Positions 2,303 through 54,155 of a stretch of 64,000 nt of DNA are shown piece after piece. Source of the stretch: Bradymonadales bacterium (GTDB lineage Bacteria > Myxococcota_A > Bradymonadia > JAFGEP01); NCBI GenBank assembly GCA_016931535.1, contig JAFGEP010000157.1, positions 917 through 64,916 on the forward strand, written 5' to 3'. Both the position numbers and the translations under genes were made by a program. The notes beneath the pieces were generated by a model. It ran no database searches. It saw nothing but the letters and a program-made list of their open reading frames with translations, and was not told the DNA's origin. Numbering within the stretch: the first letter of the stretch is position 1; the number at the start of each line of letters is the position of its first letter.

Positions 2303-3859
2303 ATGGTCGGATGTATCAGTACCGCTGCGGTAGTGGGAATCGAGGGGTACCAGGTGCGGGTGGAGGTGGATATCGCCCGAGGCTTGAAGGACTGCTTTCT
2401 GGTGGGTCTTCCGGATGGGGCGGTGCGGGAGTCGATCAAGCGGGTTTACTCGGCGATTCGGAACGCCGGGTACACCTGGCCTCGCGGGAGGATCACGGTG
2501 AACCTGTCCCCGGCGGGGCTCAAGAAAGATGGTACCGGTTTTGATCTGCCCATCGCCCTGGGGGTGCTGGCAGCATCCGATCAGCTGAAGGTGAGGGATC
2601 CCGATATCTTCGACAGGACGTTGTTCATCGGCGAGCTGTCCCTGGGAGGAGATGTCCTGGGGGTCCCCGGGGTTCTGCCGAGGGCCAGCCTGGCGAGAGA
2701 TCTGGGGGTCGAGGCCCTGGTGGTGCCCCGCTCGAATGCCAAGGAGGCGGCGGTGGTGGAGGAGTTGCGGGTGGTCTCCACGAGGGGGCTGTCGGAGATC
2801 GCCCAATGGTTGGCGGAAGGGTCCCTTCCGTATGAGGCCACAGCGAAGGGCACCATCGGACCCGAGGTGGAGTATCCGATCGACTTCAAAGAGGTGCGGG
2901 GGCAGCCGGTGGCGAAGCGGGCGCTGGAGATCGCGGCGGCGGGGAGCCACAATGTGTTGATGATCGGACCGCCAGGCACCGGCAAGACCATGCTGGCCAG
3001 GCGGTTGGTCACCATTCTGCCGACCATGAGCTTCGAGGAGGCGCTGGAGACCACCAAGATCTACTCGGTAGCGGGCGCGCTGGTCTCGGGGAGCTCGTTG
3101 ATCACGAGGCGTCCATTCTGTGCGCCACATTTTACGATCTCGGCGATCGGCCTGGCGGGAGGAGGGTGTGGCATCCCCAAGCCGGGGCAGATCTCGTTGG
3201 CCCACAACGGGGTCCTTTTTCTGGACGAGCTGCCGGAGTTTGCACCCCATGTGCTGGAGGTGATGCGAGGGCCGCTGGAAGATCGGCAGGTGACGCTGAC
3301 GCGAGGGATGATGACGATCACCTTTCCGGCCTCCATCATGCTGGTGGCCTCGATGAACCCCTGTCCATGCGGTTACTTCGGTTCTCGGGTGAGGCCGTGC
3401 CAGTGCTCGCTGGTCCAGGTGCAAAAGTACCGCAAGCGGATTTCAGGCCCTCTGCTCGACCGCATCGATCTGCATACCACGGTGGCCAACGTGGCCTGCG
3501 CCGATCTGTTGGCGGAGGTGGAGGAGGAGTCGAGCCGTTCCATTCGACAGCGGGTGGAAGCGGCCCGCGAGCGTCAGCGGGGGCGGTTCCACGGGGCCGG
3601 CATTCACTCCAACGGCCAGATGGAGAACCTCCATCTGAAGCGGTACTGCCAGCTGGCGGCCGATGGCAAGCGTCTGATACAGCGAGCCATGGAGATGCTC
3701 CACATGTCGGCCCGAAGCTACAGCCGTATCCTGAAGGTATCCCGGACCATCGCCGATCTGGAGGGGGAGGAGCGGATCAGGGAGCCACATGTGGCTGAGG
3801 CGATCGCCTTTCGTCAACTGGATCAAGGGATGGGGGACAGCCCAGGGACGGTCTGTTGA
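2303..3859 (+). CDS. comM: YifB/ComM-family Mg-chelatase-like AAA+ ATPase
   Basis: Lon-like N-terminal domain (VEVDIARGLKDCFLVGLPD, GFDLPIALGVLAAS), Walker A (GPPGTGKT), and a C-terminal Mg-chelatase ChlI-like region. GGAGAAGGGA RBS precedes the ATG at 2303. Confidence 0.85.
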   Translation: MVGCISTAAVVGIEGYQVRVEVDIARGLKDCFLVGLPDGAVRESIKRVYSAIRNAGYTWPRGRITVNLSPAGLKKDGTGFDLPIALGVLAASDQLKVRDPDIFDRTLFIGELSLGGDVLGVPGVLPRASLARDLGVEALVVPRSNAKEAAVVEELRVVSTRGLSEIAQWLAEGSLPYEATAKGTIGPEVEYPIDFKEVRGQPVAKRALEIAAAGSHNVLMIGPPGTGKTMLARRLVTILPTMSFEEALETTKIYSVAGALVSGSSLITRRPFCAPHFTISAIGLAGGGCGIPKPGQISLAHNGVLFLDELPEFAPHVLEVMRGPLEDRQVTLTRGMMTITFPASIMLVASMNPCPCGYFGSRVRPCQCSLVQVQKYRKRISGPLLDRIDLHTTVANVACADLLAEVEEESSRSIRQRVEAARERQRGRFHGAGIHSNGQMENLHLKRYCQLAADGKRLIQRAMEMLHMSARSYSRILKVSRTIADLEGEERIREPHVAEAIAFRQLDQGMGDSPGTVC

Positions 3860-3866
3860 CGGAGGC

Positions 3867-4085
3867 CAGGATCGCCCCCTCCGGCGGCTGCGCGGGCAGC
3901 GCTCGGCCAGAGACTAGGATCGCCCCCTCCGCCGCTCCGCGGCACCTCCCCCGGGCTCCGCCTCGGGGGAGGATCGCCCCCTCCGGCGGCTGCGCCGCCA
4001 CCTCCCCCGGTCTTCGCCTCGGGGGAGGATCGCCCCCTCCGGCGGCTGCGCCGCCACCTCCCACGGGCTCCGCCTCGGGGGAGGA
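3867..4085. repeat. Tandem array of about 4 copies of a ~56-bp GC-rich hairpin-forming REP-like element
   Basis: Unit is GGATCGCCCCCTCCGGCGGCTGCGCCGCCACCTCCCCCGG(G/T)CT(C/T)CGCCTCGGGGGA. Three near-identical copies plus one degenerate copy. Internal inverted repeats GGCGGC/GCCGCC and TCCCCCG/CGGGGGA. Lies between the convergent 3' ends of comM and the ybaK-like gene. Confidence 0.8.
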
Positions 4086-4105
4086 GTGCAGCGGAAAGAC
4101 GATGG

Positions 4106-4585
4106 TCATCGTTTGGCAGAGAAGCGGATGACCTTGGGTTCCACCAGCTGAGCAAAGGTCTGGTAGGGCATTCGGATCAGCTCGGTGTGACTGCCCGCGT
4201 TGAAGGCGATCTCCTCGTCCTCGGCAAGGGTCATGGCCACGTAGACATCCATGCCGTAGAGGTTGCCGAAGGGGGGCATGGCACCGATCTCGCATTCGGG
4301 GAAGATATCCTTGAACTCCCGTTCCGTGGCGAGCTGGACGTCAGGTTTGCCGATGGCTTCCGCAAGGAGGTCGAAATCCACCTTGTAGGAGGCGGGCAGG
4401 ACCGCCATGGCCATCTTGCCTTCGATCTTGAGGATGACCGTTTTGGCCAACTCCTTGCCGGGTATGTGGGCCGAGGCGGCGATCTCCTGAGCGGTGTAGG
4501 TGGTCGAGTGGCTGATGGTGACGTACTTGACCTGGTGGCTGTCGAGATACTCCCTGAGCTTCCTGATTGGCATGGCGCCCTCCAT
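4106..4585 (-). CDS. YbaK/ProX-type aminoacyl-tRNA deacylase-like protein
   Basis: About 159 aa. Conserved pattern matches the YbaK trans-editing domain. GAGGT RBS lies 6 nt upstream of the ATG (complement of 4583-4585). The longer ORF upstream is Pro/Ser/Cys-rich junk. Confidence 0.55.
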   Translation of the reverse strand: MEGAMPIRKLREYLDSHQVKYVTISHSTTYTAQEIAASAHIPGKELAKTVILKIEGKMAMAVLPASYKVDFDLLAEAIGKPDVQLATEREFKDIFPECEIGAMPPFGNLYGMDVYVAMTLAEDEEIAFNAGSHTELIRMPYQTFAQLVEPKVIRFSAKR

Positions 4586-7589: not shown

Positions 7590-10565
7590 ATGTCTTTCAT
7601 GGACCGTGCTCGCGCGTTGTATCAACGCGGGGATGCAATCCGGGCAGCGTTTCTCTTGGCTGAGGGGATCAAGCGGTCTCCTGGCGAAGAGGAGGCGTTG
7701 CGCTGGTTTCTGCAGATCTACGTGGAAGACATCGACAGTCCGGGACTGGAGCAGGAGCTGATCCGTGTCCTGCAGACCCAGCCGGACGGCCAGCAACTGC
7801 TCGAGCTGGTCAGCTCCGAGTTGGCCGAACGGGGCCAAGAGGCCCGCCTGGGATTTCTGACCCGCGTGCGCCAACTGCAGAGGCCCAGTGTTGGGCACGG
7901 TTCCAGACGGTCGGTCCGCTCGCCGATGCAGACGGCAGGGAACGACGGTATGTTGCCCCTCGTGGCCCGGGTTCCCGCCGAGAGGAGCAAGCAGGCGCCG
8001 CCCGGTCCGACCGCCACCCCGAAGGTCGAGAGCATTCCCCGCCGAAGGCGCAAGACGCAATCTATGAAGGCAGCAGCCGCTGCCCAGGGGGTTCTGCCTC
8101 TGGAGAGCCCGGAGTCGGTCTCTCCCAAGAATGACTGGTCCGGCTTTGTGGGGCTGGCCCAAGGGACCAGGGAAGGAAGCATGTCGGAGCCTATCCGCCC
8201 CGACAGTGCGCGATCACCGGCTGTTAGTGGTCGGATGCGTACAATTCCACCGATCGAAGAACCGCTCGCCCGAACCCAGCGGGAGGATGCCCCTTCCGAG
8301 ATCGGGCGGTCGCCGGTTTCCGGCGACCAGCGCTGCCCCAACGCTGTCGAAGAGGGACCGCTTGCTCCGCTGACAAACAGCGGAGGAGCTGCCGCCGTAA
8401 AGGCTGCAGAGTCGAATGCGCCTCTCGGTGAGCGGGTCATCGGGCAGGAGCCGTCCCTGTTCGATGACCTGGAGCCGTCCGGGGTCGGGGTGGAAAAGGA
8501 CCTCGTCTTCTCCGATGCCATCCTGCCGATGGAGACCGAGGAGGTGTGGAGCCTGGGATCCCTGGAGTGCGTGGAGGTGGTAGGCGGGCCCCAAGGGGAG
8601 AAGCCGGTTCGGGTGCGCAGGAGACGGACTCGGACCCGGCGTTTCCGGGTAGCCCGGCTGGCTGCGGTGGTGCCGGTGGTGGGACGCACCCTGGTGGCGG
8701 GAGCACGTTTGGTGGCGGGGGGTAAGCGAGGGGTGCTGCTGTTGCTCCTGGTGGGACTGGTCGGTGCAGGCGGGGCCTGGTATCGGGCCTGCAGAGGGAC
8801 GGCGCTGGAGCAGATCGCTTTGGCCGATCAGGCGCTCGATCGGGCCGACGGAGCCTCGTTGCGGCAGGCGGTCGCGCTGTACCAGGAGTACTTGCCCTCT
8901 GGTCACTCCGTCGCCAGCGAACGGCTGGATTTCGGGCGTGCCTTGCTGGCTGCCGACTACGGAGAGCCGTGGGACGAGATAGAGTACGGCATGGAGGAGG
9001 CGCTGGGGGTGTACGGCCTGGCGACAGTTGCGCTACGGCAGCTGGCCTTTCCGGAGAGCGGTGCAGCCCACCTGACCGGCGAGGCTCTGGTGGAACGGTA
9101 CGGAGACCACTGGTTGGCCCACTGGACCGTGGGCCGGATCGCCCAGGTTTCCGGAGACTGGTCCGCTGCAGAGGGAGCGTATCGGCGGGCCCGAGAGCTG
9201 GAACCTCGGGCGGTGCTGCCGGTGTCCGGGATGGTAGAGCTCCACCTGTTTGTGGGGCAGGACGCGGCGGCAGAACCCTTTCTGGCCGTCCTGTCCGAGC
9301 TCAATTCCGAGGAGCCGCTGGTCGCGGTAGGACGCGCTGCGATCGCATGGGGGCTCGACCCCAGGCGTACGGCGGTGGGGGTGTCTGACGCCGGTCTGCC
9401 CGATCCCGGTGCGGAGAACCTGTCGATCAAGACCCGAGATCTGCTGTTCACCCTGCGGGCGCGCCAGGCGCTGGCGGCCCGTCGGATGGAGGAGGTGGCA
9501 GCGGCGATGCAGCAGCTTCACTCCCTGGAAGGGGAGAGGGTGAGCCTGCGGGTGGCATTGCTGGATGCACTGACCAAGGCCAGAGTCTACCGCCTGGACG
9601 AGGTGGTGATCGCGCTGGATCAGGTGGACGGCGTCACGGTGCCAGGGACCCCTGCAGTGGCAGTGGTCGAGGAGTTGTCTGCCGACATCTTTCTCGACCT
9701 GTCGCGGCCTGAACTGGCATTGGCCCGCATCTCGGAGGAACCCACCAGCGCCCGGATGGCCCTGCTGCGGGCCGAGCTACTGGTGGATGCAGGCCGCGAA
9801 ACGGAGGCGCTGCGTGTCCTGGGGCACCTCATGGAGCAACCGGCCACCCGGTCGGGGGCGTTGCGGATCCTGGTCGATTACCACCTTCGACGGGGGGCGC
9901 AGGGACGAGCCCGGTTGCGGGCCGGCGGACTGGAAAATCCAGCCGACCAGTCCTATGCCGCGGCGCGATTGGCCCTGGCCGAAGAGCAGTGGGAGCAGGC
10001 GCGCCAGCATGCCGAGACCGCCCTCAATGCCGATCCGTCCGACAAGGAGAGCCTGATGATCTGGGCCCAGGCGATGGCAAGGCTTGGGCAGGCGGAGCAT
10101 GCGATCGAGCGGATCGACGAGGCGGCGTCCAACGCCATCCTCCTGGGAGTGTTCGATCGGGCCAAGCTAGAGGTGATGGTGTTCTCCAACCGGGCGCCCA
10201 GGGAGACGGTCATCGAGTATCTTTCGTTGCTGGAGGCGACCCAACCGACATCGACTCGGACCCAGACAACGCTAGCCCTGGCCTACGAGTACATCGGTGA
10301 CCTTCCGAGGGCCCGCACCTTGGCGGAGGGGGTGCTGCGCCATGAACCCCATAACGGGTGCATACGATCCTTGCTGGAACGGCTCAATGACCAGGGCCAA
10401 CCGGAGGAGGCGACGCTGGGGCCGGATGGAGAACGTTGGAGTCCGACGATCCTCGGGGAGAGCGGTGTCGACTGGATCGCCTACTTGGAGGGGCGTCGCC
10501 TGGTCCGAAACGTCGTCGGCCCGACAACCGTCCCTGGCCAATCCAGGCGGCCGTCGGGCCGTTGA
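7590..10565 (+). CDS. Large hypothetical protein: cytoplasmic N-region, single TM helix, periplasmic TPR-like helical repeats
   Basis: 991 aa. One hydrophobic segment (VLLLLLVGLVGAGGAWY) near residue 370. The C-terminal ~600 aa are made of Ala/Leu/Arg/Glu-rich helical repeats. Codon usage matches its neighbours. Confidence 0.5.
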   Translation: MSFMDRARALYQRGDAIRAAFLLAEGIKRSPGEEEALRWFLQIYVEDIDSPGLEQELIRVLQTQPDGQQLLELVSSELAERGQEARLGFLTRVRQLQRPSVGHGSRRSVRSPMQTAGNDGMLPLVARVPAERSKQAPPGPTATPKVESIPRRRRKTQSMKAAAAAQGVLPLESPESVSPKNDWSGFVGLAQGTREGSMSEPIRPDSARSPAVSGRMRTIPPIEEPLARTQREDAPSEIGRSPVSGDQRCPNAVEEGPLAPLTNSGGAAAVKAAESNAPLGERVIGQEPSLFDDLEPSGVGVEKDLVFSDAILPMETEEVWSLGSLECVEVVGGPQGEKPVRVRRRRTRTRRFRVARLAAVVPVVGRTLVAGARLVAGGKRGVLLLLLVGLVGAGGAWYRACRGTALEQIALADQALDRADGASLRQAVALYQEYLPSGHSVASERLDFGRALLAADYGEPWDEIEYGMEEALGVYGLATVALRQLAFPESGAAHLTGEALVERYGDHWLAHWTVGRIAQVSGDWSAAEGAYRRARELEPRAVLPVSGMVELHLFVGQDAAAEPFLAVLSELNSEEPLVAVGRAAIAWGLDPRRTAVGVSDAGLPDPGAENLSIKTRDLLFTLRARQALAARRMEEVAAAMQQLHSLEGERVSLRVALLDALTKARVYRLDEVVIALDQVDGVTVPGTPAVAVVEELSADIFLDLSRPELALARISEEPTSARMALLRAELLVDAGRETEALRVLGHLMEQPATRSGALRILVDYHLRRGAQGRARLRAGGLENPADQSYAAARLALAEEQWEQARQHAETALNADPSDKESLMIWAQAMARLGQAEHAIERIDEAASNAILLGVFDRAKLEVMVFSNRAPRETVIEYLSLLEATQPTSTRTQTTLALAYEYIGDLPRARTLAEGVLRHEPHNGCIRSLLERLNDQGQPEEATLGPDGERWSPTILGESGVDWIAYLEGRRLVRNVVGPTTVPGQSRRPSGR

Positions 10566-10631
10566 CCCGTCCGTCGCGTTGCAGCAAATTGGACGTCGAG
10601 CGGTTCGGTTCTATTCACACAGTTGAGTCCG

Positions 10632-11324: not shown

Positions 11325-11396
11325 AGGTCGGCCTCCACCCCGAGACCAAGAGGATGGGAGGTTGGAAAGCGGGGAAGAGGGGATCGGGAGGAAGAG

Positions 11397-11480
11397 TACC
11401 GGAGGTCGGACTCGAACCGACACGGTGTTGCCACCACTGGATTTTGAGTCCAGCGCGTCTGCCTATTTCGCCACTCCGGC
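11397..11480 (-). tRNA. tRNA-Leu (anticodon CAA), class II with a long variable arm
   Basis: Reverse complement reads GCCGGAGTGGCGAAATAGGCAGACGCGCTGGACTCAAAATCCAGTGGTGGCAACACCGTGTCGGTTCGAGTCCGACCTCCGGTA. It has a 7-bp acceptor stem, anticodon loop cTCAAaa, a GGTTCGAGTCC T-arm, and no encoded CCA. Confidence 0.85.
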
Positions 11481-11492
11481 CTGCACCAACTG

Positions 11493-11521
11493 GAGATACC
11501 CACAGTTGCCAAAACTGTCAA
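11493..11521 (-). promoter_or_regulatory. Sigma70-type promoter for tRNA-Leu (TTGACA, 17 nt, TATCTC)
   Basis: On the minus strand, TTGACA (complement of 11516-11521) and TATCTC (complement of 11493-11498) are separated by 17 nt. The tRNA 5' end at 11480 lies about 12 nt downstream. Confidence 0.5.
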
Positions 11522-11538
11522 GCGGGCACTTTGTGTCC

Positions 11539-11600
11539 AGGGGCCAGGATCGCCCCCTCCGGCGCTGCGCGCCACCTCCTCCAGGCTCCGCCTCGGGGGA
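11539..11600. repeat. Single copy of the same REP-like element seen at 3867..4085
   Basis: CAGGATCGCCCCCTCCGGCGCTGCGCGCCACCTCCTCCAGGCTCCGCCTCGGGGGAGGG is about 85% identical to the 3972..4027 unit. It sits between the stop of the 11604 gene and the tRNA promoter. Confidence 0.75.
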
Positions 11601-11603
11601 GGG

Positions 11604-13607
11604 CTACTGGCTGATCTTCAGCTCGAGTCCTCCCGGGTAGGCGTAGGAGACGTGGCAGGAGTAGCCGTAGGCGTCCAGTCCGAAGGGCTGATCGGCGGTG
11701 ACCCAGTGTGGGCCATCTTCCACCAGGACCCGGGCGACCGAGTAGGCGCCGTCAGCCATGGGGACGAAGAGATCGGGGGAGATCGGCTGGCCGTCGAGCC
11801 GCGCCGAGGGGACGGCCTCGGCCGGTAGGGCCAGGTTGAGATAGTCCTGCAGGTAGGCGAAGGGGGTGAGGACGAGGTAGTCCTTGCGGAACTGGTCGGT
11901 GGGGATGAGCTGGGTCATGGCAGGGTCGCCGATGCCGGTAGGCGGGCCGGTGTTGTCGTAGCACTCTCGCGGGATGCCGGTCCAGTTGGCGCCGACCATG
12001 TAGTGGGCTACGAGGATGGGGTGGTCGGCGATTATGCGGAAGTCGTCCCGGTAGGGGAACTCGATCCACTCGCCGGAGCCGAGGATGACGCCGTGCACCT
12101 CGGCGATCTCGGGGACGGTGGTCAGCGTGGTCGCACCGGAGACGGCGACCACGCGCCAGTAGTCCGGCTCACTGCGGGTGCCTGGAGGTACACGGGGCTG
12201 GAACTTGACGGCCAGGTACTCGTTGCGCAACAGGTCAACGGGGAGGAGCTGGGTTTCGATGTGATCGCAGCGGTCGACGCCCAGGATGACGTTGGCGCAC
12301 TCATGTCCGCCAAAGACCGCGATGGGTCCGCCGACGGACCAGATGTGGCTGCCGGTCAGGTCATCGCCCGCCCCGACGGTCTGCAAGGTGAGGGTCTGTC
12401 CCCAGTCCAGGCTCCAGGACCGATGCTCGCCAGGGGCCATGGGGGATTGACCATCGCCGACCAGGGCGTTGGTGCTGGATACGACATGGACCTCGATCGG
12501 ATCGTCGGCTACGGCGACAATCGAGACGAAACCGTTGAGGGGAGCGCTGGGGTGCTCCCGGTGTACCCAGGAGGCGGCGTAGTACTCGTTGGACAGGGCG
12601 TGGTCGGGAAGGAGGAGGGTGCCGTCGTTGGAGAACGGGTCGAGATCGTTGTCGAGGGGATTGAACTGGTGTGCGAGGAGGGGGACGGTGCTGGTGATGA
12701 ACCAGCTGTTATTGGTCACGCCCGGTTCGATCAGGCCCCGGTCGTTGGGGAAGCGGATGACCAGCTGTCCGCCTGCGGGGACGGTGGTGTCCTCGATCGA
12801 GAGCGACAGGCCCTCGGCATCCACCACGCTCACCTCGGCGGAGAAGTCGGCGGAGGGGTTGGAGAGGACCACGGTGTGCTCCATGGATTCGGCCTCTTCG
12901 TAGTTGTCCAGATCGACGGTCCAGTACTCGCATCCCATGTAGTTGCGGATCTTGCGGCTGATCTCGCAGAGCGGCTGGCAGGTGTCTTCGTAGCAGCCGG
13001 TGCCTGCGGCGCATTGCTCCTGCGGGGTGTACAGACCGGTGGACGGGTCGCAGGTGAGGATGACGTCGATGCCGTCGCAGCGATGGGAGCCGGGCAGGCA
13101 GGGGGGTTCGACACAACGGCCCTCCTCGCAGGTCCAGTACGGTGGGCACTGCTCGATCACCCAGGCGGTTCCACTGAAGTTACAGATGTCCAGGGCAGAT
13201 TCGCCGTAGCAGCCCCGGACCTCGTGGGGTTCGCAGATGATCTCCTGGCATTCGCCATCGAGACAGCCCAAGCCGGGTCCGCACTGGATCTGTTGGCGGG
13301 ACATGCCGTCCTGGCTGCACTCGAGATAGGTGGTGGCGCTCACGCAGACCCGGGAGCCGGGCTCGCAGAGGAGGCCGTCATCGAGGCCGGAGCCATCCAC
13401 GGGATCGAGTCCCGGCTGGTCCAGGGGACTGGTGTCGTCTCCTGTCTGGTCGGGCAGGTCATGGCCGACGTCGGAGGAGGGGCTGGAACAGCTCCAGGTG
13501 AGTGGGAAGGCGAGCGAGAGGAGGAGCACGAGATTCGATCCGGCCAAACCCAACCAACGGGGAGGGCTGGAAAGGAACCATGGGTTGGTCCTTTTTGGTT
13601 CGCACAT
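11604..13607 (-). CDS. Large Cys-rich secreted protein (putative lipoprotein, EGF-like Cys spacing in the N-terminal region)
   Basis: GGAGG RBS precedes the ATG at 13607. Signal peptide with LAFPLTWSC lipobox-like end. Many paired Cys over the first ~200 aa, then a large beta-rich domain. Confidence 0.55.
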   Translation of the reverse strand: MCEPKRTNPWFLSSPPRWLGLAGSNLVLLLSLAFPLTWSCSSPSSDVGHDLPDQTGDDTSPLDQPGLDPVDGSGLDDGLLCEPGSRVCVSATTYLECSQDGMSRQQIQCGPGLGCLDGECQEIICEPHEVRGCYGESALDICNFSGTAWVIEQCPPYWTCEEGRCVEPPCLPGSHRCDGIDVILTCDPSTGLYTPQEQCAAGTGCYEDTCQPLCEISRKIRNYMGCEYWTVDLDNYEEAESMEHTVVLSNPSADFSAEVSVVDAEGLSLSIEDTTVPAGGQLVIRFPNDRGLIEPGVTNNSWFITSTVPLLAHQFNPLDNDLDPFSNDGTLLLPDHALSNEYYAASWVHREHPSAPLNGFVSIVAVADDPIEVHVVSSTNALVGDGQSPMAPGEHRSWSLDWGQTLTLQTVGAGDDLTGSHIWSVGGPIAVFGGHECANVILGVDRCDHIETQLLPVDLLRNEYLAVKFQPRVPPGTRSEPDYWRVVAVSGATTLTTVPEIAEVHGVILGSGEWIEFPYRDDFRIIADHPILVAHYMVGANWTGIPRECYDNTGPPTGIGDPAMTQLIPTDQFRKDYLVLTPFAYLQDYLNLALPAEAVPSARLDGQPISPDLFVPMADGAYSVARVLVEDGPHWVTADQPFGLDAYGYSCHVSYAYPGGLELKISQ

Positions 13608-22420: not shown

Positions 22421-24649
22421 ATGCCGATGCAGCAAGTGACGACAACACGTCCATTTGGGCGATACCAGCTGGAGCGCCTGATCGGACGAGGCGGGATGGG
22501 GGAGATCTACCTGGCCCGCATGGAAGGGGCGGCCGGTTTCCGGAAACCGGTGGTCATCAAGAAGATCCTGCCGCACCTGGCGCAACAGCCGGAGTTCTTG
22601 ACGCGCTTCATCGACGAGGCGCGGATCGTGGTGACCCTGACGCACGGCAACATCGTGCCGGTGCTGGACATGGGGGAGGTGGAGGGGGAGTACTTCATCG
22701 CCATGGAGTACATCCCAGGGCGCGACCTGGGCGAGGTCCTGCGCCGCTACCGAGAGCTGGGAGAGCTGATGCCGGTACGGCTGGGCGCGTTCGTCATCTC
22801 GGAGACCTGCCGCGCGCTGGACTATGCGCACCAGAAGACCGACGACCAGGGACAAGAGCTCCGGATCGTTCACCGGGATGTGAGCCCCTCGAACATCCTG
22901 TTGAGCCACGAGGGGGTGGTCAAGCTCACCGATTTCGGCATCGCCAAGGCGGTCAGCAAGCTGGGGCGGAGCATCACGGGGCAGCTGCAGGGGAAGTTCT
23001 GCTACATGAGCCCGGAGCAGGCCTCCGGGGAGATGCTCGATCACCGGGGCGACATCTTCTCGCTGGGGACGGTGGCCTACGAGGTCTTCACCGGAGTGAG
23101 GCTGTTCGAGGGGGAGAACGATCTGGATACTCTGAAGCGGGTTCGGCAGGCTCGGGTAATGCGACCCTCTGCCAGGCGGGAGGGGCTGTCGGCCCGCTTG
23201 GATGCGGTGGTGTCGAGAGCGCTGGCGCAGGCGCCCCGGGATCGATACCAGACGGCCCGCGAGTTCGGGACAGAGCTACTCCAGGCGGGAGATCCGGAGG
23301 GGAAAACCGGGGCGGCGGATCTGGCGGAGGAGCTGAGGCGGCTGTTTCCCGGCGGGGTGTCGGCGCTGGGCACCCCGCCGTCCGGGATGGGGCTGGATGC
23401 GATCATGGGGATGGAGGCCGAGCGGTTGCTGCTGGCCAGCCCTTCGGGGCGGAGCCCAACCCTGACGGCGCCGGTCCGGGTCCGGCAGGAGGAGCGAGAG
23501 GTGGCGGTGCGCCCGACACCGCCCTCGTTGCAGCCACCGCTGTTCACTCCCCAGGAGCTGGCGGCGATTACTGGGATGACGCAGATCAGGCCCCGCTATG
23601 GATGGGTGCTGTTGGCCTTGTTGGTTCTGGCCGCGGTGGCGCTTGTGCTGCTGTACCTGTGGCCGGGCTACCTGTTGCCGAGCTACCTGGAGGTGTCCTG
23701 CAACGAGGCGGGTGCAGAGATCCGGGTGGACAACCAGAACCGAGGGATCTGTCCGGTTCGGCTGGAGGTCGGTCCTGGAACGCACACCGTCTTCGCCTGG
23801 AAGGGGGAGCTGGAGGCGGAACAGCGGGTGCGGGTGGAACGGGGGGCGGTGCAGACGGTGGATCTCCTCCTGCAACGGGTGCGACCGGAGCCGATCGAGG
23901 TGACGGTGCGCACGGAACCGGTCGGCGAGTTCTCGCTGGACCACGGTTCGACCTGGCACGCGAGCGGAACCCAGCTGGAGCTGAGTCCGGGAGCGGTGGA
24001 TATCTGGGCTCGCCTGGATGGCAGCAGCCAGCCTCAGGTGATCCCACAGTACGCCTTCACGCCCCAGCGGACCGAGCTGCTCATCCCGTTGAGCCCCCCT
24101 CGACAGCCGGAGCCCCGGGTCGATGCGCCGGATGCGGGGGAGCCCGACCTGTCCGCGGAGGAGCTGGAAGAACCGGCGGTTGAGGTCGGGATCGCGCCCA
24201 GTCCGTCGCGTGTCCGGTTACGAGTATCGGTCAACCCACCGGACGCCTGGATCTACGATGGCACTCGACCGGTGTCTCAGGGATCGGCCAACTTGTCGTT
24301 CGGCCCGGACGACCCGCCGCATACGATCAGGGCGGTGGCGGAGGGATACGAGCCTGAGGAATGGGTCTTTGACCCGAGGAACGGCAGCGACCGGAAGGAT
24401 TTCACCCTTCACAGGCGGTCGCAGCAGCGCTATCCAATCCGGATCGTCCCGTACAACTACACCGGTTGCCGGGCCACCATCGACGGCCAGCTTCAGCCCG
24501 AGGTGCTGCCCAACAACTTCGAACTGGTCACAGGGGAGCACACGGTCCTGGTAGAATGCGAGGAGAGGGGGCTGACCGAGGAGCAGGTCATCGAGGTGGT
24601 GGAGAGCGACCAGGTGACGGTGCACCGATTTTTGACCCCTCCTCGATGA
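22421..24649 (+). CDS. Ser/Thr protein kinase with TM segment and C-terminal PEGA domain
   Basis: Hanks kinase motifs (GRGGMGEIY, VIKK, HRDVSPSNILL, DFGIAK, MSPEQ). Hydrophobic segment WVLLALLVLAAVALVLLYLW. C-terminal AEGYEPEEWVF PEGA-type motif. Confidence 0.85.
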   Translation: MPMQQVTTTRPFGRYQLERLIGRGGMGEIYLARMEGAAGFRKPVVIKKILPHLAQQPEFLTRFIDEARIVVTLTHGNIVPVLDMGEVEGEYFIAMEYIPGRDLGEVLRRYRELGELMPVRLGAFVISETCRALDYAHQKTDDQGQELRIVHRDVSPSNILLSHEGVVKLTDFGIAKAVSKLGRSITGQLQGKFCYMSPEQASGEMLDHRGDIFSLGTVAYEVFTGVRLFEGENDLDTLKRVRQARVMRPSARREGLSARLDAVVSRALAQAPRDRYQTAREFGTELLQAGDPEGKTGAADLAEELRRLFPGGVSALGTPPSGMGLDAIMGMEAERLLLASPSGRSPTLTAPVRVRQEEREVAVRPTPPSLQPPLFTPQELAAITGMTQIRPRYGWVLLALLVLAAVALVLLYLWPGYLLPSYLEVSCNEAGAEIRVDNQNRGICPVRLEVGPGTHTVFAWKGELEAEQRVRVERGAVQTVDLLLQRVRPEPIEVTVRTEPVGEFSLDHGSTWHASGTQLELSPGAVDIWARLDGSSQPQVIPQYAFTPQRTELLIPLSPPRQPEPRVDAPDAGEPDLSAEELEEPAVEVGIAPSPSRVRLRVSVNPPDAWIYDGTRPVSQGSANLSFGPDDPPHTIRAVAEGYEPEEWVFDPRNGSDRKDFTLHRRSQQRYPIRIVPYNYTGCRATIDGQLQPEVLPNNFELVTGEHTVLVECEERGLTEEQVIEVVESDQVTVHRFLTPPR

Positions 24650-24673: not shown

Positions 24674-26053
24674 ATGGCGCAAGTGACCCAGACAGCCATC
24701 CTGGAGGGTGGAGACACGGTACTGAAGCTGCTGCGGTACGAGCTCAAGGTGCGCGATCCGCAGGGCCAAGTGACAAGTCATGCGTTTGATCGCCGGGAGG
24801 TGGTGATCGGGAGCAACCCGGATGTGGATCTGAGCCTGGACGACGAGAGCGTGTCTCGGCAGCACTGTCTGATCGAGGTGGGGGAGCTGGGGTATCGGCT
24901 GAGAGATCTGAACAGCAAGAACGGGACCTACGTCGGGGGGATGCGGGTGAACGATCTGTACCTGGAGCCGGGAGCTACCTTTGCGGTGGGTCGGCATCTC
25001 CTGCAGTTCGAGGTGGGGGAGCAGGAGGTGGAGATCCGACTGAGCGGCCGGAAGGAGTTCGGGGAGCTGATCGGGGGCAGCGTGTGCATGCGGGAGGTGT
25101 TTGGAGTGCTGGGGCGGGTGGCTCCCACCGACACGACGGTGCTGATCGAGGGGGAGAGTGGGACGGGCAAGGAGCTGGCTGCGCGGGCGCTGCATGACCA
25201 TAGTGGGCGGGGGAGGGGGCCGTTCGTGGTGTTCGACTGCTCGGCGGTGCCTGCGGAGCTGATGGAATCGGAGCTGTTCGGACACCTCAAGGGGGCGTTC
25301 ACGGGAGCGGTGTCGTCGCGCAAAGGGGCGTTCGAGCGGGCACAGGGGGGTACGCTGCTGTTGGACGAGGTAGGGGAGCTGAGTCTGGAGCTGCAGCCCA
25401 AGCTGTTGCGGGTACTGGAAAGTCGGCAGGTGACGCCGGTGGGTGGCGGTGAGCCGGTGACGTGCGATGTACGGATCGTGGCGGCGACCAACCGGGATCT
25501 GAAGAGAGAGGTGAGCGAGGGGCATTTTCGGGAGGATCTGTACTATCGTCTGGCGGTGATCCAGGTGGTTCTTCCTCCGCTGCGCAGAAGGCCGGAGGAC
25601 ATCCCCTTGCTGGTGGAGCGATTTTTGGGGGAGGTGTCGCGATCCACGGGGAAGGGGCCTCTGGCGGTCAGTTTTTCGACCATGGAGAAGCTCAAGAAGC
25701 ACCGTTGGCCAGGGAACGTGAGGGAGCTTCGGAACTTCGTGGAGCGGGCGGCGGTATTGGCCGAGGGGGATCGGGTGGAGACCCGGTTCTTGAAGCTGGG
25801 CCAAAGCCAGCAGACGGAGGGGGAGGGGGGCCTGCCGGAGGGGATCGGCGGAGATATTCAGATCGATGAAGATCTCCCGTTCAAGGATGCAAAGAACCGG
25901 CTGGTCGAGGTGTTCGAAAAAGCATACTGGACTCGACTGCTGGAGCGGACCGGTGGTAATATCAGCAAAGCGGCTCGAATTGCGGGAGTGCATCGGAAGA
26001 GCGCGGAGTACATACTGCGCAAGCTCGAGCTGGGACGGGGCGACTTGGAGTAG
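24674..26053 (+). CDS. Sigma54-dependent transcriptional activator with N-terminal FHA domain
   Basis: FHA core (VVIGSNPDVDLSLDDESVSRQHCLIE...NSKNGTYV). AAA+ sigma54-interaction domain (GESGTGKE, GAFTGA, ESELFGH). C-terminal Fis-type HTH. Confidence 0.85.
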   Translation: MAQVTQTAILEGGDTVLKLLRYELKVRDPQGQVTSHAFDRREVVIGSNPDVDLSLDDESVSRQHCLIEVGELGYRLRDLNSKNGTYVGGMRVNDLYLEPGATFAVGRHLLQFEVGEQEVEIRLSGRKEFGELIGGSVCMREVFGVLGRVAPTDTTVLIEGESGTGKELAARALHDHSGRGRGPFVVFDCSAVPAELMESELFGHLKGAFTGAVSSRKGAFERAQGGTLLLDEVGELSLELQPKLLRVLESRQVTPVGGGEPVTCDVRIVAATNRDLKREVSEGHFREDLYYRLAVIQVVLPPLRRRPEDIPLLVERFLGEVSRSTGKGPLAVSFSTMEKLKKHRWPGNVRELRNFVERAAVLAEGDRVETRFLKLGQSQQTEGEGGLPEGIGGDIQIDEDLPFKDAKNRLVEVFEKAYWTRLLERTGGNISKAARIAGVHRKSAEYILRKLELGRGDLE

Positions 26054-44561: not shown

Positions 44562-47500
44562 TTACACCGGGACAGGCGGTTCTCCCTTGAGCGCCAACCT
44601 GCGGGCGGGGTCGGTGATGGCGTTGATCTTGACGGCGAAGCTGGTGCGCTTGGCGATGTCCTGGTCGGTGACCAGGTGGATATCGAGGAGGCCGTTGGTG
44701 CGGTATCCGGTTTTGAGGTAGTTCACCTCGGAGAGGCAGAGGCTCCAGCCTTCGAGCCAGTCGAGCAGCGCCTGGCGTTGTGCAGGGGTGCTGCGGATGT
44801 GGAGGAGGAGATCGATGTCGCTGCCGGGTCCTGCGCTGGCGTTCTTGGTGCTGCCGAACAGGTAGAGCGCCTGGACGCCGAAACGGGCGGGGTCAAGGTC
44901 GGAGGCGACCTGGGCAGCCATTTTCCATCGCCATCGCCAGTGCTCGTCGGCGTGATGCTGGGTGCCGCTCTGGTACTCGGGGATGTGGTCTTTTCGCTCG
45001 CCGGGGCTGGTGAGGAAGCCGATGGCCTCCTCCAGGTCGGCGTTCATCAAGATGCGCAGGATGCGGTCGCCGGTGGTGGCGGGGATATCGACGACCCGGA
45101 TGGTGTCGGCCAGCGAGGCGAATTCGGGGAGGATCTTGGGGAGCAGGTTCGGTGCGCCGCGCAGGAGCCGTTCGTTGAAGAAGATGCCTGGGTTATCGGG
45201 GTAGAGGGGGAGGTATCGGATGGAGGATTCGACCAGGTCCTGGAAGAAGTGGGTGCCGAAGGAGAGATCGGGCACGTAGTTGCCTTTTTTTCGGGCGATT
45301 TCGACCAGCATGGCGGTGTTGTTGATGTCGGAGTAGGTGACGGAGACTCCCAGCTTGATGTCGCCACGGCTGCCCCAGCGACCCGGTCCCATCAGGATGA
45401 ACTGGCGCTTGGGGAGGAGGGTGTTGAGGCGACTGATGGCTCGACCCACGGAGAGCATCTCCTGCCGACTGGGGAGATCGCCATAGCGCATGGGATCGAC
45501 GTAGACCACGTGGGTGATATCCGGGATCCAGCCGTTGGATACGTGCTGATTGGCGGTGAAGACGATGTCCTGGGGGTGGATGTCCTTGGGGATAGGGGCG
45601 GGGGTGTCGCCTTGGGAGACGTACTGGGGCCGGCACTGCAGGAGGTAGAAGTCGGTTCCGTCGTGGGCGAACTCGATGTCGACGGGGTGACCCAGGGCTT
45701 CCTGGAGGACCTTCAAGATGGAGCCGGTCTTCTGAACGAAGTGGGAGTTGGTGATGAGTCCGTCGAAGGTGGCCACGGCCTGGTCGGTCTCGGGGTCGAA
45801 CAGGAGGGCCAGGGGTCGTGTGAGGTGGTTGTCGCGCAGGAGGGAGAAGATGGACTCGAAGGCGGGGAATTCGGATCCGACCTCGAGCAGGAGGTCTTGG
45901 ATGGCGAGGGTCTGGAAGGAGCCGGTCTGGAGGTTGATCACGTCGATCTGTCGAGGGCAGTATCGCAGGAGCTCTTCGATGCTGACGTTGACGCGGAGGT
46001 TGGGTTGTCCTGGGACGGCCAGGATGGGGTAGTCATCGCCCAGGCGATCCACAGCGCGTGTTCCGAGCCCTGGCACCAGGCGGATGAGGCCGTCTTCGCG
46101 CTTGATTCTGGGCGACCAGCGGAACTCGTTGTTGCTGAAGGCGACGCCGGCGAAAGCGGGCAGGAAGTAACGACCGACGCGGGTTCCGACGACCTCCTGG
46201 AGGAGGACCCCCATCTCCTCGTCGAAGTCGAGCAGGCCGTGTTGGCGGCGATACTCGATGGGGTCGGGGGAGAAGATGGAGGCGTAGATCTCGGCGATGG
46301 CGTCGAGCAGGGCGGAGAGGCGTTCCTGGAGGGCCCCCTGGTTGGCGAGGAAGAGGCTCTTGTATTTGCCGGAGAAGGCGGTGCCGAAGCGATCTTCGAG
46401 GAGACTGGAGCTGCGGACGATGATGGGGACGTCCCCCAGGTCGGAGATGGCGAGGGAGAGCCCTCGGACCAGATCGGGGGGGAAGCAGGAGTTTTTGAAC
46501 AGCTGGACGATGTTGGGGTAGTCCTGTCGTATCTGTTCGACCTCTTTGTACTTGTGCTCGAACATCTCCTCCAGGTCGTTGTAGACGATGAAGTCCTTGA
46601 TACCGCTGGAGGCGACGTACCAGGTGCTGGGGATCTTGAAGGGGGGGAGTTGAGGTTCCTGGCCCTTGGCTTTTTCGAGGATGCGGGCGGCCAGAAACAG
46701 GCCGGCGCCTTTGCCGCCCAGCTTGCCCTGTCCCTCGGGGGTGGAGACGAGGTGATCGAGCAGGGGGGCGAAGTCTCGGACATCGAGGTACTCTTTGGCG
46801 ACCACGATGAAGTCGATCTGCTCGGTGAGGATGCGGCGGGTGAGAGAGACGCGCAGGCCGTTGGAGATGTGCTGGGAGAGCGATTCGCTTTCGGCGACCA
46901 TGGCCCGAAACCGCCTGAGGGCGTCCGCCACGTCGGGAAGGGGGGCGTGCATGTTGTTGAGGACCTTGAGGATGGCGCCCAGGTTGTCTTCCTGGAACCA
47001 ACGCTGCACGCGGGAGAGGATCTCTTCGTCGGTCAGGTATTTCGATGCCAGCTCGAAGGGGTGATCGCTGGCCAGCCATTCGTTGTCTACGGCCCGTTTG
47101 CGGCCGGGGTAGTTGACCTCGCCGCTGTTTTCGGCAGAGCCGATGGGGCAGGGGTCCCATTCGAGGAGACGTTGTTGGGCCTCCTCGATGCCGATTCCGC
47201 AGAGGTAGTTGAGCAGTTTGCGGGCGATTCGGACATAGAGGGAGCGGTCCGACTGACGGAGCAGGCGCAAGGGGCCTCGCCATTCGCCGCGCCGGTCGGG
47301 GGAAGGGGCCTTGTGGACCTGTTCCAGCTCCTGGCGGGCACTTTTCATTTGCAGGTACAGGGCGAACTGGCCGAGCCGTCTGGCGACGGATTGGAGGAGC
47401 TGCTCTTCCTCTTTGAGGAAGGGCCCGACATCGGCGGTTGGCCGGGATTCGGTGTAGTAGACGGTCAACCGGCCGAGGACCTGGTTGTGTACCAGGATGT

Positions 47501-47756
47501 CGGCGGCAAGGGTCCAGGGTGTAGAGAGGCTGTTGTCGGTGGAGTAGAGCTGGCCTTCGAACAGGATGGAGGCCTGGCAGATGTCGGAGTATTGCCAGCC
47601 TTTGGGGAGGATCTTGACCACCCCTTCGAAGACGGAGGCGAGCGTGGCATCGGGCTGGTTGCAGAGTTCTTCGACCTGGTAGAGGCAGCTCAACTCCTTG
47701 GTGCGTTCCTGCAAGGATGTCAACAGCTTGTCGACGGGGCTGGAGGGTTCACTCAT
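44562..47756 (-). CDS. Multidomain protein: N-terminal GAF-like region + PEP-synthase/PPDK N-terminal (ATP-grasp-like, PPDK_N) domain + C-terminal Pol-beta-type nucleotidyltransferase domain
   Basis: GGKGAGLFLAARIL and IIVRSSSLLEDRFGTAFSGKYKSLFL match the GGKxxxL and VRSSAxxEDxxxxSFAGQ motifs of the PEP synthase/PPDK nucleotide-binding domain. No GGxxSHAA phosphohistidine motif. C-terminal LYLFGSTKNASAGPGSDIDLLLHI is a GS...D.D nucleotidyltransferase signature. 1064 aa. Confidence 0.7.
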   Translation of the reverse strand: MSEPSSPVDKLLTSLQERTKELSCLYQVEELCNQPDATLASVFEGVVKILPKGWQYSDICQASILFEGQLYSTDNSLSTPWTLAADILVHNQVLGRLTVYYTESRPTADVGPFLKEEEQLLQSVARRLGQFALYLQMKSARQELEQVHKAPSPDRRGEWRGPLRLLRQSDRSLYVRIARKLLNYLCGIGIEEAQQRLLEWDPCPIGSAENSGEVNYPGRKRAVDNEWLASDHPFELASKYLTDEEILSRVQRWFQEDNLGAILKVLNNMHAPLPDVADALRRFRAMVAESESLSQHISNGLRVSLTRRILTEQIDFIVVAKEYLDVRDFAPLLDHLVSTPEGQGKLGGKGAGLFLAARILEKAKGQEPQLPPFKIPSTWYVASSGIKDFIVYNDLEEMFEHKYKEVEQIRQDYPNIVQLFKNSCFPPDLVRGLSLAISDLGDVPIIVRSSSLLEDRFGTAFSGKYKSLFLANQGALQERLSALLDAIAEIYASIFSPDPIEYRRQHGLLDFDEEMGVLLQEVVGTRVGRYFLPAFAGVAFSNNEFRWSPRIKREDGLIRLVPGLGTRAVDRLGDDYPILAVPGQPNLRVNVSIEELLRYCPRQIDVINLQTGSFQTLAIQDLLLEVGSEFPAFESIFSLLRDNHLTRPLALLFDPETDQAVATFDGLITNSHFVQKTGSILKVLQEALGHPVDIEFAHDGTDFYLLQCRPQYVSQGDTPAPIPKDIHPQDIVFTANQHVSNGWIPDITHVVYVDPMRYGDLPSRQEMLSVGRAISRLNTLLPKRQFILMGPGRWGSRGDIKLGVSVTYSDINNTAMLVEIARKKGNYVPDLSFGTHFFQDLVESSIRYLPLYPDNPGIFFNERLLRGAPNLLPKILPEFASLADTIRVVDIPATTGDRILRILMNADLEEAIGFLTSPGERKDHIPEYQSGTQHHADEHWRWRWKMAAQVASDLDPARFGVQALYLFGSTKNASAGPGSDIDLLLHIRSTPAQRQALLDWLEGWSLCLSEVNYLKTGYRTNGLLDIHLVTDQDIAKRTSFAVKINAITDPARRLALKGEPPVPV

Positions 47757-49509
47757 GGTGTTTCACCACCGCTCTTGCCCGACGTCCATCGGCCTGGACG
47801 AACAGTGGCACCGATGTGCGGACATGCTTGACGAACCGGCCTTCCGCGATGGTCTCTTGGCGGGAGAGCCAATCGTAATCAATACCATAGCGGCCGGCAT
47901 GGGGTAGGGAAAGGTAGAGGACCCGAAAAGCGATCAGGTTGTGGAAGAAGTGGGAGCCCTGACTCAGATCGGGGTTGACCTCGGGAAGTGTGGCCTCGAC
48001 GATGACCTGTGCGCCGCAGATCTGTCCCCACTCGACCGGGATCCCCATCCAGGGGTCGGTGCTGCCCCATCTTCCGAAGCCGATGAGGAGGTAGGGTCGG
48101 GATTCCGCGAGGAGAACGCGGTTTCGCTGCTCGATCTCGGCTGCGATCTGGTGGGTATAGCTCGTGTCGAACGCCTCGGGCTTGACGAACACCACATCCT
48201 GGATGGAGCGGCAGATGCCGTGGCCGAGGACGGACTGGGAGGCCAGAAGCACATCGGGGCCTTGCATCTCGTGGGGTTCCAGGGAGATGGCCTGGTCATA
48301 GAGCATCATGGGCCTGACCTGCAGAAACCCCAGCTGAGCGGGCGGCTTTCCTCTGGGATCGAGGTTGACCGCGAACTCGATCTCGACATCGGACTGGAGG
48401 GTGTGACGGGCGAGGTCGAGCAGGCGTCTGATCAGCGGGTTGAGCGGCAGGCGCTGGGAGACCAGGAGGGGGGCGAAGGTGAGGATGCGCGGCCCAGGTC
48501 GGCCGATGCCGGGGAACAGCCGGTCGGAGCGTGGGTCGTAGGTGGAGGCGATCAGATCGAGGGAACCTTCTCGCTCGGCCTGCTCGAGGGGGGCCCTGAC
48601 CAGGTACTCGGTTTCGCGGATGGGGTCGGGCATGGGGGGGGGACCCATGTGAACGGCCCAGTACTCGGTCTGGGTGTTCTTGAGCATGTCGGAGAGGCTC
48701 TTGTAGGGGGGGGGCGCCTTGGGACGGGTGGGGGCGTAGGTCCAGCAGATCCCACCATCCACGATGGTCTTCCCCAGGCCGAGGGCCAGATTGACGACGC
48801 CGTCCTCCGGGTTGGTCCCCGAGGTGGGGTAATAGTTGAAGGAGCGGGCCACTCCGGAGAGCGTTGGATAGAAGCGGTTGTGGCGGCGTTGGCCCACGAT
48901 CTCCTGGATGATGACCGCCATGCCCTCGATGTCCGGAGGCTGGCCGATGGAGCGGAGGTAGCTCTTGGCGGCACGGAAAAAGGTGGAAGCGTAGACGAAC
49001 TTGATCGCCTCGACCAGCTTGCGGAAACGGGTGTCGATGTCCGGCTGGTTGTTGGGGATCATCTTGGTGGCGTAGACGCCGGCAAAGGGGTGGTCGAGTT
49101 GGTCCTCCAACAGGCTGGAGGAGCGGACGGCAAGGGGGGAGTGCACCTGGGTGATGAGGGCACGGAGATCGCCCAGGATGAGAGGCGAGAGGTCGGCCTT
49201 CTGGAAGGCATGGGCGATCCGGTCATCGGGCTGATCGGACAGAGCGATGGGGTAGAGGTCGTTGTGACGCAAGAAGGTGTGGAAGGTATCGGTGGCCAGC
49301 ACCGCAGCGATGGGCACGCGCACCTGGAAATCGGGATGTGTGTCGGGCGACAGGGCGGACAGGATCTTCTGCTGGATCAGGACCAGGCCGGACGCTTTGC
49401 CGCCCAGTGCGCCAGAGCCGATGCGGCTGAGGACCTGGGAGGGGTCGAAGAACTGGCGATTGAAGGGGGGGATGGAGGATTCGGCGGCGAGCGGCATCAG
49501 ACTCTCCAC
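47749..49509 (-). CDS. PEP-synthase/PPDK N-terminal (PPDK_N) domain protein, paralog of the N-terminal ATP-grasp module of the downstream gene
   Basis: GGKASGLVLIQ and LAVRSSSLLEDQLDHPFAGVYATKMIP motifs. Second-half motifs (LIGFGRWGSTDPWMGIPV...SQGSHFFHNLI) align with LMGPGRWGSRGDIKLGVSV...SFGTHFFQDLV in the neighbour. No phosphohistidine domain seen. 8-bp overlap with the next gene. Confidence 0.7.
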   Translation of the reverse strand: MESLMPLAAESSIPPFNRQFFDPSQVLSRIGSGALGGKASGLVLIQQKILSALSPDTHPDFQVRVPIAAVLATDTFHTFLRHNDLYPIALSDQPDDRIAHAFQKADLSPLILGDLRALITQVHSPLAVRSSSLLEDQLDHPFAGVYATKMIPNNQPDIDTRFRKLVEAIKFVYASTFFRAAKSYLRSIGQPPDIEGMAVIIQEIVGQRRHNRFYPTLSGVARSFNYYPTSGTNPEDGVVNLALGLGKTIVDGGICWTYAPTRPKAPPPYKSLSDMLKNTQTEYWAVHMGPPPMPDPIRETEYLVRAPLEQAEREGSLDLIASTYDPRSDRLFPGIGRPGPRILTFAPLLVSQRLPLNPLIRRLLDLARHTLQSDVEIEFAVNLDPRGKPPAQLGFLQVRPMMLYDQAISLEPHEMQGPDVLLASQSVLGHGICRSIQDVVFVKPEAFDTSYTHQIAAEIEQRNRVLLAESRPYLLIGFGRWGSTDPWMGIPVEWGQICGAQVIVEATLPEVNPDLSQGSHFFHNLIAFRVLYLSLPHAGRYGIDYDWLSRQETIAEGRFVKHVRTSVPLFVQADGRRARAVVKHHE

Positions 49510-50900: not shown

Positions 50901-51178
50901 GATGATGACTCCCATGAACAAAGGGTAAGTAATGAACGGTACGTTTACCGCGCCGGCAGGGAAAGTCAAGCCGCACAGGGGTTGAGGTTGCGCCAGGGAC
51001 GAAAGGGGGCGAGGACCGACCGGGCGCGGGATGGTGGAATCATCCACAGTTGTTGTTCCAGGGAAGGGTCTGTAGTAACATGAGCGACAATCCGCAGGGT
51101 TTGTCACAGGTACCGCCCTGCAGGGGGTGGGCATCGGGAGCAGGCCTGGCGGATTTTTCACAAGGCAAAAGCGTGGTG

Positions 51179-53975: not shown

Positions 53976-54155
53976 TCATCTCACCTCACGTATCGTTCCT
54001 TCCAGTCAACCCGATGAGCCGGAAAGAGGGAGGCGCTCCTTTTTGGGAGGGTCATCTCGTGGCGGTTTATGGAGTAAGGGCCGTGTGGGGTGATTGCACC
54101 ATTTCGGCAGTCCGACTATGCTATTTGCCAGCGAACACCAGGGGGAATATGGGTC

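Follow-up and report, generated by a model that had tools for sequence, protein, structure and literature searches.

The window, that is the whole 64,000-nt stretch of DNA that was analysed, contains a tandem array of short GC-rich repeats in the gap between two convergent genes, and a solo unit of the same repeat between a tRNA-Leu(CAA) gene and the 3' end of a gene encoding an IgGFc_binding-domain protein. The source is a MAG of an uncultured bacterium that NCBI labels 'Bradymonadales bacterium'; its proteins are numbered from MBN1947818 onwards (locus tags JW797_*), and an independent Logan assembly from run SRR13394437 was used alongside them. The NCBI annotation has no CDS between the comM and ybaK genes that enclose the array, and their accessions (MBN1947818 and MBN1947819) are consecutive. 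The features of the two loci are as follows.

2303-3859, plus strand: ComM/YifB Mg-chelatase-like ATPase gene (stop codon 3857-3859, followed by an 8-nt spacer to the array)
3868-3915, plus strand: unit c1, a 48-nt variant ('B-type') unit whose first ~25-31 nt match the family; the head AGGATCGCCCCCTCCGGCGGCTGC(GC) is the family match and the tail (3892-3915), GCGGGCAGCGCTCGGCCAGAGACT, stands in place of hairpin 2
3916-3972, plus strand: unit c2, full, 57 nt, with the short hairpin 1 GCCGC-TCC-GCGGC (nhmmer E 5e-15; covariance model 85 bits)
3970-4028, plus strand: unit c3, full, 59 nt, with a terminal AGG common to its neighbours and hairpin 1 GGCGGC-TGC-GCCGCC
4026-4084, plus strand: unit c4, full, 59 nt, with one A in the left arm of hairpin 2 (CCTCCCACG)
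4106-4573, minus strand: YbaK/EbsC (tRNA_edit) gene (stop codon 4106-4108, separated from the array by a 21-nt spacer)
11396-11480, minus strand: tRNA-Leu(CAA), transcribed away from the solo unit
11522-11545, plus strand: 24-nt segment before the solo unit, homologous to the tail of c1 and abutting the putative -35 hexamer of tRNA-Leu
11546-11602, plus strand: unit c5, the solo full unit, 57 nt, with hairpin 1 GGCGC-TGC-GCGCC (nhmmer E 9e-17; covariance model 86 bits)
11604-13607, minus strand: IgGFc_binding-domain gene (stop codon 11604-11606), its 3' end 1 nt from the solo unit

All copies are extragenic and lie 8, 21 and 1 nt from stop codons. The position of the array between the convergent comM and ybaK-like genes, which had been proposed from the sequence alone (hereafter, the sequence-only reading), is borne out by the ComM/YifB gene on the plus strand and the YbaK/tRNA_edit gene on the minus strand that flank it. 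For the solo copy the same reading named a Cys-rich gene end on one side and the promoter of tRNA-Leu on the other; the Cys-rich gene (26 Cys among the 667 residues of the IgGFc_binding-domain protein, 3.9%) and the tRNA gene are there, whereas the promoter is a match found by eye. This match, TTGACA-17 nt-TATCTC at 11493-11521 of the minus strand, lies upstream of tRNA-Leu(CAA) and fails the criteria of the promoter scan; the putative -10 hexamer TATCTC agrees with the consensus at three of six positions, and the -35 hexamer abuts the 24-nt linker described below.

With the 217 nt of the array taken away, 29 nt would remain between comM and ybaK. Of the other five convergent gaps in the window, four measure 15-38 nt and one 174 nt, so that the array has the look of something inserted or expanded within a compact genome. 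The long gap (57540-57713), between a Lamin Tail Domain (LTD) gene and a nitroreductase gene, has no repeat unit inside, and a period-11 microrepeat lies just past it at 57751-57778. The LTD gene itself (54090-57539, 1149 aa) contains diverged direct repeats of ~540 bp (54600-57400, 63-79% identity), which are a coding domain repeat. At 10512-10566 the stop codon of a TPR gene (7590-10565), which a SRAP gene follows closely, lies within another inverted repeat (19-nt arms with 79% complementarity and a spacer of 17 nt), possibly a hairpin at the gene end that has nothing to do with the repeat family. Elsewhere in the window two adjacent genes with PPDK_N (pyruvate phosphate dikinase ATP-binding) domains occupy 44562-49509 of the minus strand, the larger of which (1064 aa) also has a nucleotidyltransferase domain. 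Two Ser/Thr protein kinases (22421-24649 and 51050-52885) each carry a C-terminal PEGA domain, and the first of them is followed by an FHA-sigma54 activator gene (24674-26053).

The array as assembled (3868-4084, 217 nt) is composed of three full units (57, 59 and 59 nt) and one 48-nt variant unit, which follow each other head to tail and abut without spacers, with periods of 54, 56 and 56 nt and with adjacent units overlapping by the trinucleotide AGG; the solo unit has the same orientation. Tandem Repeats Finder reports the stretch 3916-4085 with a period of 56, 3.1 copies and 91% matches. The 15-mer GGATCGCCCCCTCCG occurs exactly at 3869, 3917, 3971, 4027 and 11547, on the plus strand every time, and at up to two mismatches it has 10 matches against 0.89 expected, a number that no shuffle reached. 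The 3' motif GCTCCGCCTCGGGGGAGG terminates the units ending at 3972, 4028, 4084 and 11602. The repeat is real and non-random. Both an unfiltered profile HMM and a covariance model run with its filters off found it at five places only in the 64 kb, the next-best matches having E values of 0.06 and 0.3. The composition is strongly asymmetric between the strands, with 27 C against 18 G per unit. As a side observation, the GC skew (G-C)/(G+C) of the window is positive in every 2-kb bin (0.075-0.255) whatever the orientation of the genes, which is unusually high, and it places the entire window on one replichore; the C-rich strand of both repeat loci is the G-rich strand of the window.

The adjacent units c3 and c4 are 95% identical, and c5 is 90-92% identical to c2-c4. 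The first unit is more distant: its overall identity to the others is 64-68%, and nhmmer aligns it to positions 1-26 of the profile only (E 2.3e-4; covariance model 26 bits). The sequence-only reading counted four head-to-tail copies of ~56 bp and placed a fifth, ~85% identical and in the same orientation, at 11539..11600. The tandem array stands, although its full copies are three and its first unit is the variant; the fifth copy and its orientation stand likewise, with the coordinates corrected to 11546-11602 and the identity to 90-92%.

Each full unit begins with a 16-nt head, AGGATCGCCCCCTCCG, which is followed by hairpin 1 (a GC stem of 5-6 bp with a 3-nt loop), a CA spacer and hairpin 2, a 9-bp stem (CCTCCCCCG / CGGGGGAGG) with a loop of ~10 nt. 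The head is non-palindromic and is the best-conserved part of the unit, being invariant in all five copies; the four full copies agree in all of the final 13 nt. Three stem versions of hairpin 1 occur (that of c3 and c4, that of c2 and that of c5), which differ by one double change from G:C to C:G and by a matched deletion of one base on each arm, and the pairing is perfect in all of them; this covariation is drawn from four sequences. Hairpin-templated repair, too, can preserve palindromes, with no selection involved. Units c2 and c5 both have the short form of hairpin 1, and c3 and c4 the long form. In hairpin 2, c5 has one G:U pair, and c4 and c5 have a single mismatch each; the sequences of hairpins 1 and 2 are unrelated. 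The nested inverted repeats GGCGGC/GCCGCC and TCCCCCG/CGGGGGA of the sequence-only reading are thus present as inverted repeats, but as two adjacent hairpins and not as nested ones. Folding of the unit gave two hairpins in every full copy, the pairing of hairpin 1 being kept across its versions. In the minimum free energy fold the C-rich head lies outside the two main hairpins and is enclosed only by a weak 3-bp stem. Compared with dinucleotide shuffles the folding energies are only modestly better: z is between -0.1 and -2.6 for single units and -1.0 and -1.4 for the array as a whole, as is expected at 80% GC.

Several more familiar kinds of sequence were considered for the array. An ORF of 91 aa with a TTG start (3856-4131, plus strand) crosses it, as do ORFs of 110 and 172 aa on the minus strand. 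The codon-position GC of the 91-aa ORF is 0.66/0.80/0.79, against 0.64/0.47/0.80 and 0.57/0.37/0.83 in the flanking genes, and none of the three ORFs has the coding GC pattern of the genome. A coding repeat can be dismissed, the period of 54/56 nt not being a multiple of 3 and the coding GC signature being absent. The suspicion that the 91-aa ORF (3856..4131) is an artefact is confirmed: the ORF is present, lacks the coding GC pattern and has no CDS at NCBI.

Like intrinsic (Rho-independent) terminators, the units are GC-rich stem-loops just after stop codons, but they differ from them in having no T/U-run. Neither 3860-4105 nor 11481-11603 contains a site according to the terminator scan, a T-run is missing after every hairpin on both strands, and terminator-like sites are not enriched across the window. 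A canonical intrinsic terminator is excluded because of the missing U-tract. A genomic island bounded by the two direct loci (at comM and the tRNA gene) was also rejected, as there is no integrase, the genes between the loci are ordinary and have no mobile-element functions, the composition is uniform and the repeat is not derived from the tRNA. The array is not a CRISPR array, since its units abut without unique spacers, nor an array of type III (ToxI-like) antitoxins, since no gene lies downstream on either strand and both neighbours converge on it. A MITE was discarded as well: the ends of the unit (AGGATCGCCCCCTCC... and ...CCTCGGGGGAGG) are mirror-like and not inverted, and the flanks have no duplication in common except a possible AGG.

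The relationship between the two loci extends beyond the unit itself. The 24-nt segments that precede c2 (3892-3915, where c1 has its tail) and c5 (11522-11545) agree at 14 of 24 positions in register (GCGGGCA...CCAG.G.C.), with p ~0.002 relative to random 24-mer pairs from the window, and the repeat family D10 extends the c2/c5 pair to 81 nt. Since these upstream segments are homologous and c2 and c5 share the short hairpin 1, the unit copied between the two loci was probably at least 81 nt long, i.e. the linker together with one unit. Units c3 and c4 look like a later local duplication, as they are adjacent, 95% identical and both with the long hairpin 1. A composite of the 24-nt linker and one unit may thus have been copied between at least two intergenic sites, and at the comM/ybaK site the unit would then have been amplified head to tail by slippage or unequal recombination.

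The integrity of the assembly and the occurrence of further copies could be examined with the independent k=31 Logan assembly of SRR13394437, the terminal 30-mers of its contigs being checked on both strands of the window. An assembly artefact is unlikely: three independent Logan contigs reproduce c1, c4 and c5 base for base. Contig L131 ends where its terminal 30-mer becomes common to c3 and c4, which is the expected behaviour and served as a control. In L002 and L130 the terminal 30-mer is unique in the window: that of L002 starts exactly at the first base of c1, and that of L130 starts one base past the private A of c5. An assembly breaks in this way where the sample contains a second sequence with the identical 30-mer and a different base in front of it. 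As the breaks of L002 and L130 are unexplained by the copies in the window, they imply, indirectly, further copies in the sample, at least one more of the c1 type and at least one more with hairpin 1 of c5, sharing at least 30 nt. Other loci could account for the extra copies, as could variant arrays in strains that co-occur. A further contig, L132, which carries the SRAP gene, ends at 11433 inside tRNA-Leu, the k-mers of the tRNA being presumably common to other genomes or paralogues in the sample.

These observations are best accommodated, in our judgement and with moderate confidence, by a lineage-specific family of short extragenic repeats, to be placed broadly among the REP-like or MIRU-like small dispersed repeats. 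Such a family would spread duplicatively and expand locally by slippage or unequal recombination. No terminal inverted repeats or clear target duplication were seen at the loci, and no transposase in the window.

The same two loci might also be the product of a single local event, in which an intergenic segment of ~81 nt was copied once by ectopic recombination or gene conversion and then multiplied by slippage at one site, so that there would be neither a family nor a function. The distribution of the repeat speaks for such an event: the ~73 kb examined contain just two loci, which have a common orientation and are separated by 7.6 kb, and the other ~61 kb are empty; no further copy was found in the 8.6 kb that Logan contig L133 adds on the right-hand side of the window, and no homologue appeared in any collection searched. 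It does not account for two assembly break points that fall exactly at unit boundaries and need copies outside the window, and the head and the 3' end, which are invariant while hairpin 1 varies with compensation, argue for more than a recent neutral copy. We regard a purely local event as unlikely, and keep the repeat family as the preferred reading.

Relatives of the repeat were sought in several collections. A gapped exact pattern, GGATCGCCCCCTCC N20-42 GCCTCGGGGGA, gave one chance match among 185,579 species genomes, in a cyanobacterial MAG and with an unrelated middle part, and so no related sequence; in the JGI metagenomes it gave no matches. The 19-mer head AGGATCGCCCCCTCCGSCG had at least 120 matches in metagenomes, in unrelated GC-rich contigs, and the rest of the unit was absent among the matches listed; in IMG/VR it had one chance match, without the rest of the unit. 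Several of the metagenome matches look like ordinary coding sequence, the reverse complement of which would encode ..EGGAIL... Because the 19-mer is common in unrelated GC-rich contigs, the head of the repeat alone is unusable as a search key. Searches with blastn against plasmid and phage collections returned nothing, and Rfam gave no match at the gathering score or at E up to 10. Nothing related was found among ORFs called through other arrays (frames of both strands; two word-indexed searches and a full HMMER scan of 1.84 billion representatives), a protein-level search that could detect arrays only, a solo copy corresponding to ~19 residues. The contigs with the nearest ComM homologues (61% identical) have a GC content of 56% and 70%, a different gene order and no copy of the element. 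The expectation that the repeat is lineage-specific and unannotated is therefore supported: it has no relative in the collections searched, and the 61% identical ComM relatives are without it.

Among known systems the REP, REPIN and BIME elements of Enterobacteria and Pseudomonads are an obvious comparison. A REP is defined by a 5' GT(A/G)G with a palindrome after it; a pair of inverted REPs, which forms one long hairpin, is a REPIN, and in a BIME such pairs follow each other in tandem, with linker motifs between them (PMC3686654, PMC3116915). REPs are also highly numerous and almost exclusively intergenic, and a cognate RAYT (Y1 transposase) gene is flanked by the repeats; all five copies of the present repeat are intergenic, at two loci in ~73 kb. 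Like these, the units described here are short, GC-rich, hairpin-forming, extragenic, lineage-specific and located after gene 3' ends, they occur singly and in tandem, and the sequence of a hairpin varies with its pairing kept. Unlike these, they are direct repeats and have two mutually unrelated hairpins and an invariant 16-nt non-palindromic head. As there is a single orientation and hairpins 1 and 2 are unrelated, the units do not form REPINs, and as they occur head to tail only, they do not form BIMEs; the 24-nt linker-like module common to both loci is a partial parallel to the latter. The REP/BIME architecture and placement claimed by the sequence-only reading therefore hold as regards the hairpins, the gene 3' ends and the GC-rich repeat, and fail as regards the architecture, given the direct units, the unrelated hairpins and the non-palindromic head. 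For the GT(A/G)G of a REP the evidence is equivocal: a GTGG is found beside hairpin 1 on the minus strand only, where it overlaps the stem in c3-c5 and reads GTGC in c2, against a chance expectation of ~10% (a rough estimate). Pseudomonas fluorescens SBW25 has tandem clusters of REPINs (PMC3116915), so that a head-to-tail array of hairpin repeats is in itself nothing new.

A true REP-like or PATE-like element, mobilised as a single strand by a RAYT or IS200/IS605-type enzyme, might still be considered. A Y1 transposase encoded elsewhere in the genome would then recognise hairpin 1 together with the minus-strand GTGG, or the 16-mer, and insert the element 3' of GGCC. In keeping with this, both independent left junctions read GGCC|AGGATCG, the minus-strand GTGG precedes and overlaps hairpin 1 in c3, c4 and c5, the hairpin sequence varies with its pairing kept as in the REP classes (PMC3686654), and the tandem arrangement has its counterpart in the REPIN clusters (PMC3116915). 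On the other hand, c2 has GTGC, and a GT(A/G)G would be found beside one of the four hairpin flanks in ~10% of cases by chance, by a rough estimate; inverted doublets are absent; and the GGCC junction would be an inner part of the element, not a target site, should the 24-nt linker be part of it as well. Pfam analysis of ~45 genes of the window detected no transposase, integrase, Y1_Tnp or RAYT, so that a Y1_Tnp gene is missing from the window. In sum, mobilisation of this kind appears improbable.

The MIRU of Supply et al. (1997) are reportedly units of 40-100 bp that are arranged head to tail in tandem, vary in copy number and are dispersed intergenically; they are said to lie within operons in the direction of transcription, with small ORFs that overlap the flanking stop and start codons. 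The repeat resembles them in its direct units of 54-56 nt, with 3.1-3.9 tandem copies and a solo copy 7.6 kb away. It differs from them in that its period is not a multiple of 3, the neighbouring genes are convergent, the ORFs have no coding GC pattern and hairpins dominate the unit.

Another system of tandem two-hairpin units is represented by the CcsR/cuckoo sRNAs of Alphaproteobacteria (Rfam ar14), which carry C-rich motifs resembling an anti-Shine-Dalgarno sequence, are located in a 3' UTR and have extra copies elsewhere (PMC8034643). The array is like them in consisting of tandem two-hairpin C-rich units 3' of a gene. However, in CcsR/cuckoo CCUCCUCCC is present in both loops, whereas the C-rich motifs of the repeat are in the 5' head and in a stem, and there is neither an Rfam match nor a DUF1127 neighbour. 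The array might be a functional analogue of CcsR/cuckoo, i.e. an array of sRNAs processed from the 3' UTR of comM, and the invariant C-rich head CCCCCUCC of each unit would pair with Shine-Dalgarno sequences; the ends of other genes would have received copies too. The array follows comM directly on its downstream side and has the strand in common with it, each unit has two hairpins, and the C-rich head lies outside both, all of which fit such a role, as does the precedent of CcsR1-4, which are in tandem and derived from a 3' UTR (PMC8034643). The G:U pair in hairpin 2 of c5, and one more noticed by eye in a possible hairpin of the linker upstream of c5, fit an RNA of the plus strand and would each be an A·C on the other strand. 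Yet the solo copy is antisense to the gene upstream of it and there is no promoter-like site on the plus strand; the second C-rich motif is in a stem and not in a loop; and the repeat matches nothing in Rfam and has no terminator U-tract to set the 3' end of an sRNA. We find an sRNA array quite improbable.

The strict conservation outside the hairpins, the regular spacing and the strong strand asymmetry (27 C vs 18 G per unit) might be explained differently if the DNA itself were the functional form. The 16-mer repeated every 56 bp would then be a protein-binding site, as BIMEs bind IHF or gyrase, or the mirror pyrimidine tracts CCCCCTCC...CCTCCCCC would adopt an unusual DNA structure. The existence of a solo copy speaks against this, no candidate for the binding protein emerged, and such a role seems highly improbable.

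If the repeat is a dispersed extragenic family, as preferred here, its positions suggest what it may do. Read-through from the adjacent genes would place the units in 3' UTRs, where their stable hairpins might act as barriers at the 3' end, for example by protecting against exonucleases, by pausing the polymerase or by assisting factor-dependent termination. The units would also separate convergent transcription units and shield the promoter region of tRNA-Leu. This functional part is weaker than the statement at the level of the family.

Taken together, the repeat is probably an ordinary lineage-specific example of the small extragenic repeats that many bacteria carry, REP-like in its placement and hairpins and without the REP/BIME architecture. 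By itself it opens no new biological question. Small extragenic repeats are rarely catalogued in uncultured lineages, and this unit accounts for a spurious ORF in a MAG as well as for a break point of the assembly, which makes it relevant to the quality of annotation and assembly. If the family is abundant, it might serve as a strain-typing or copy-number marker for the lineage, and its head-to-tail two-hairpin architecture would be added to the known REP-like types.
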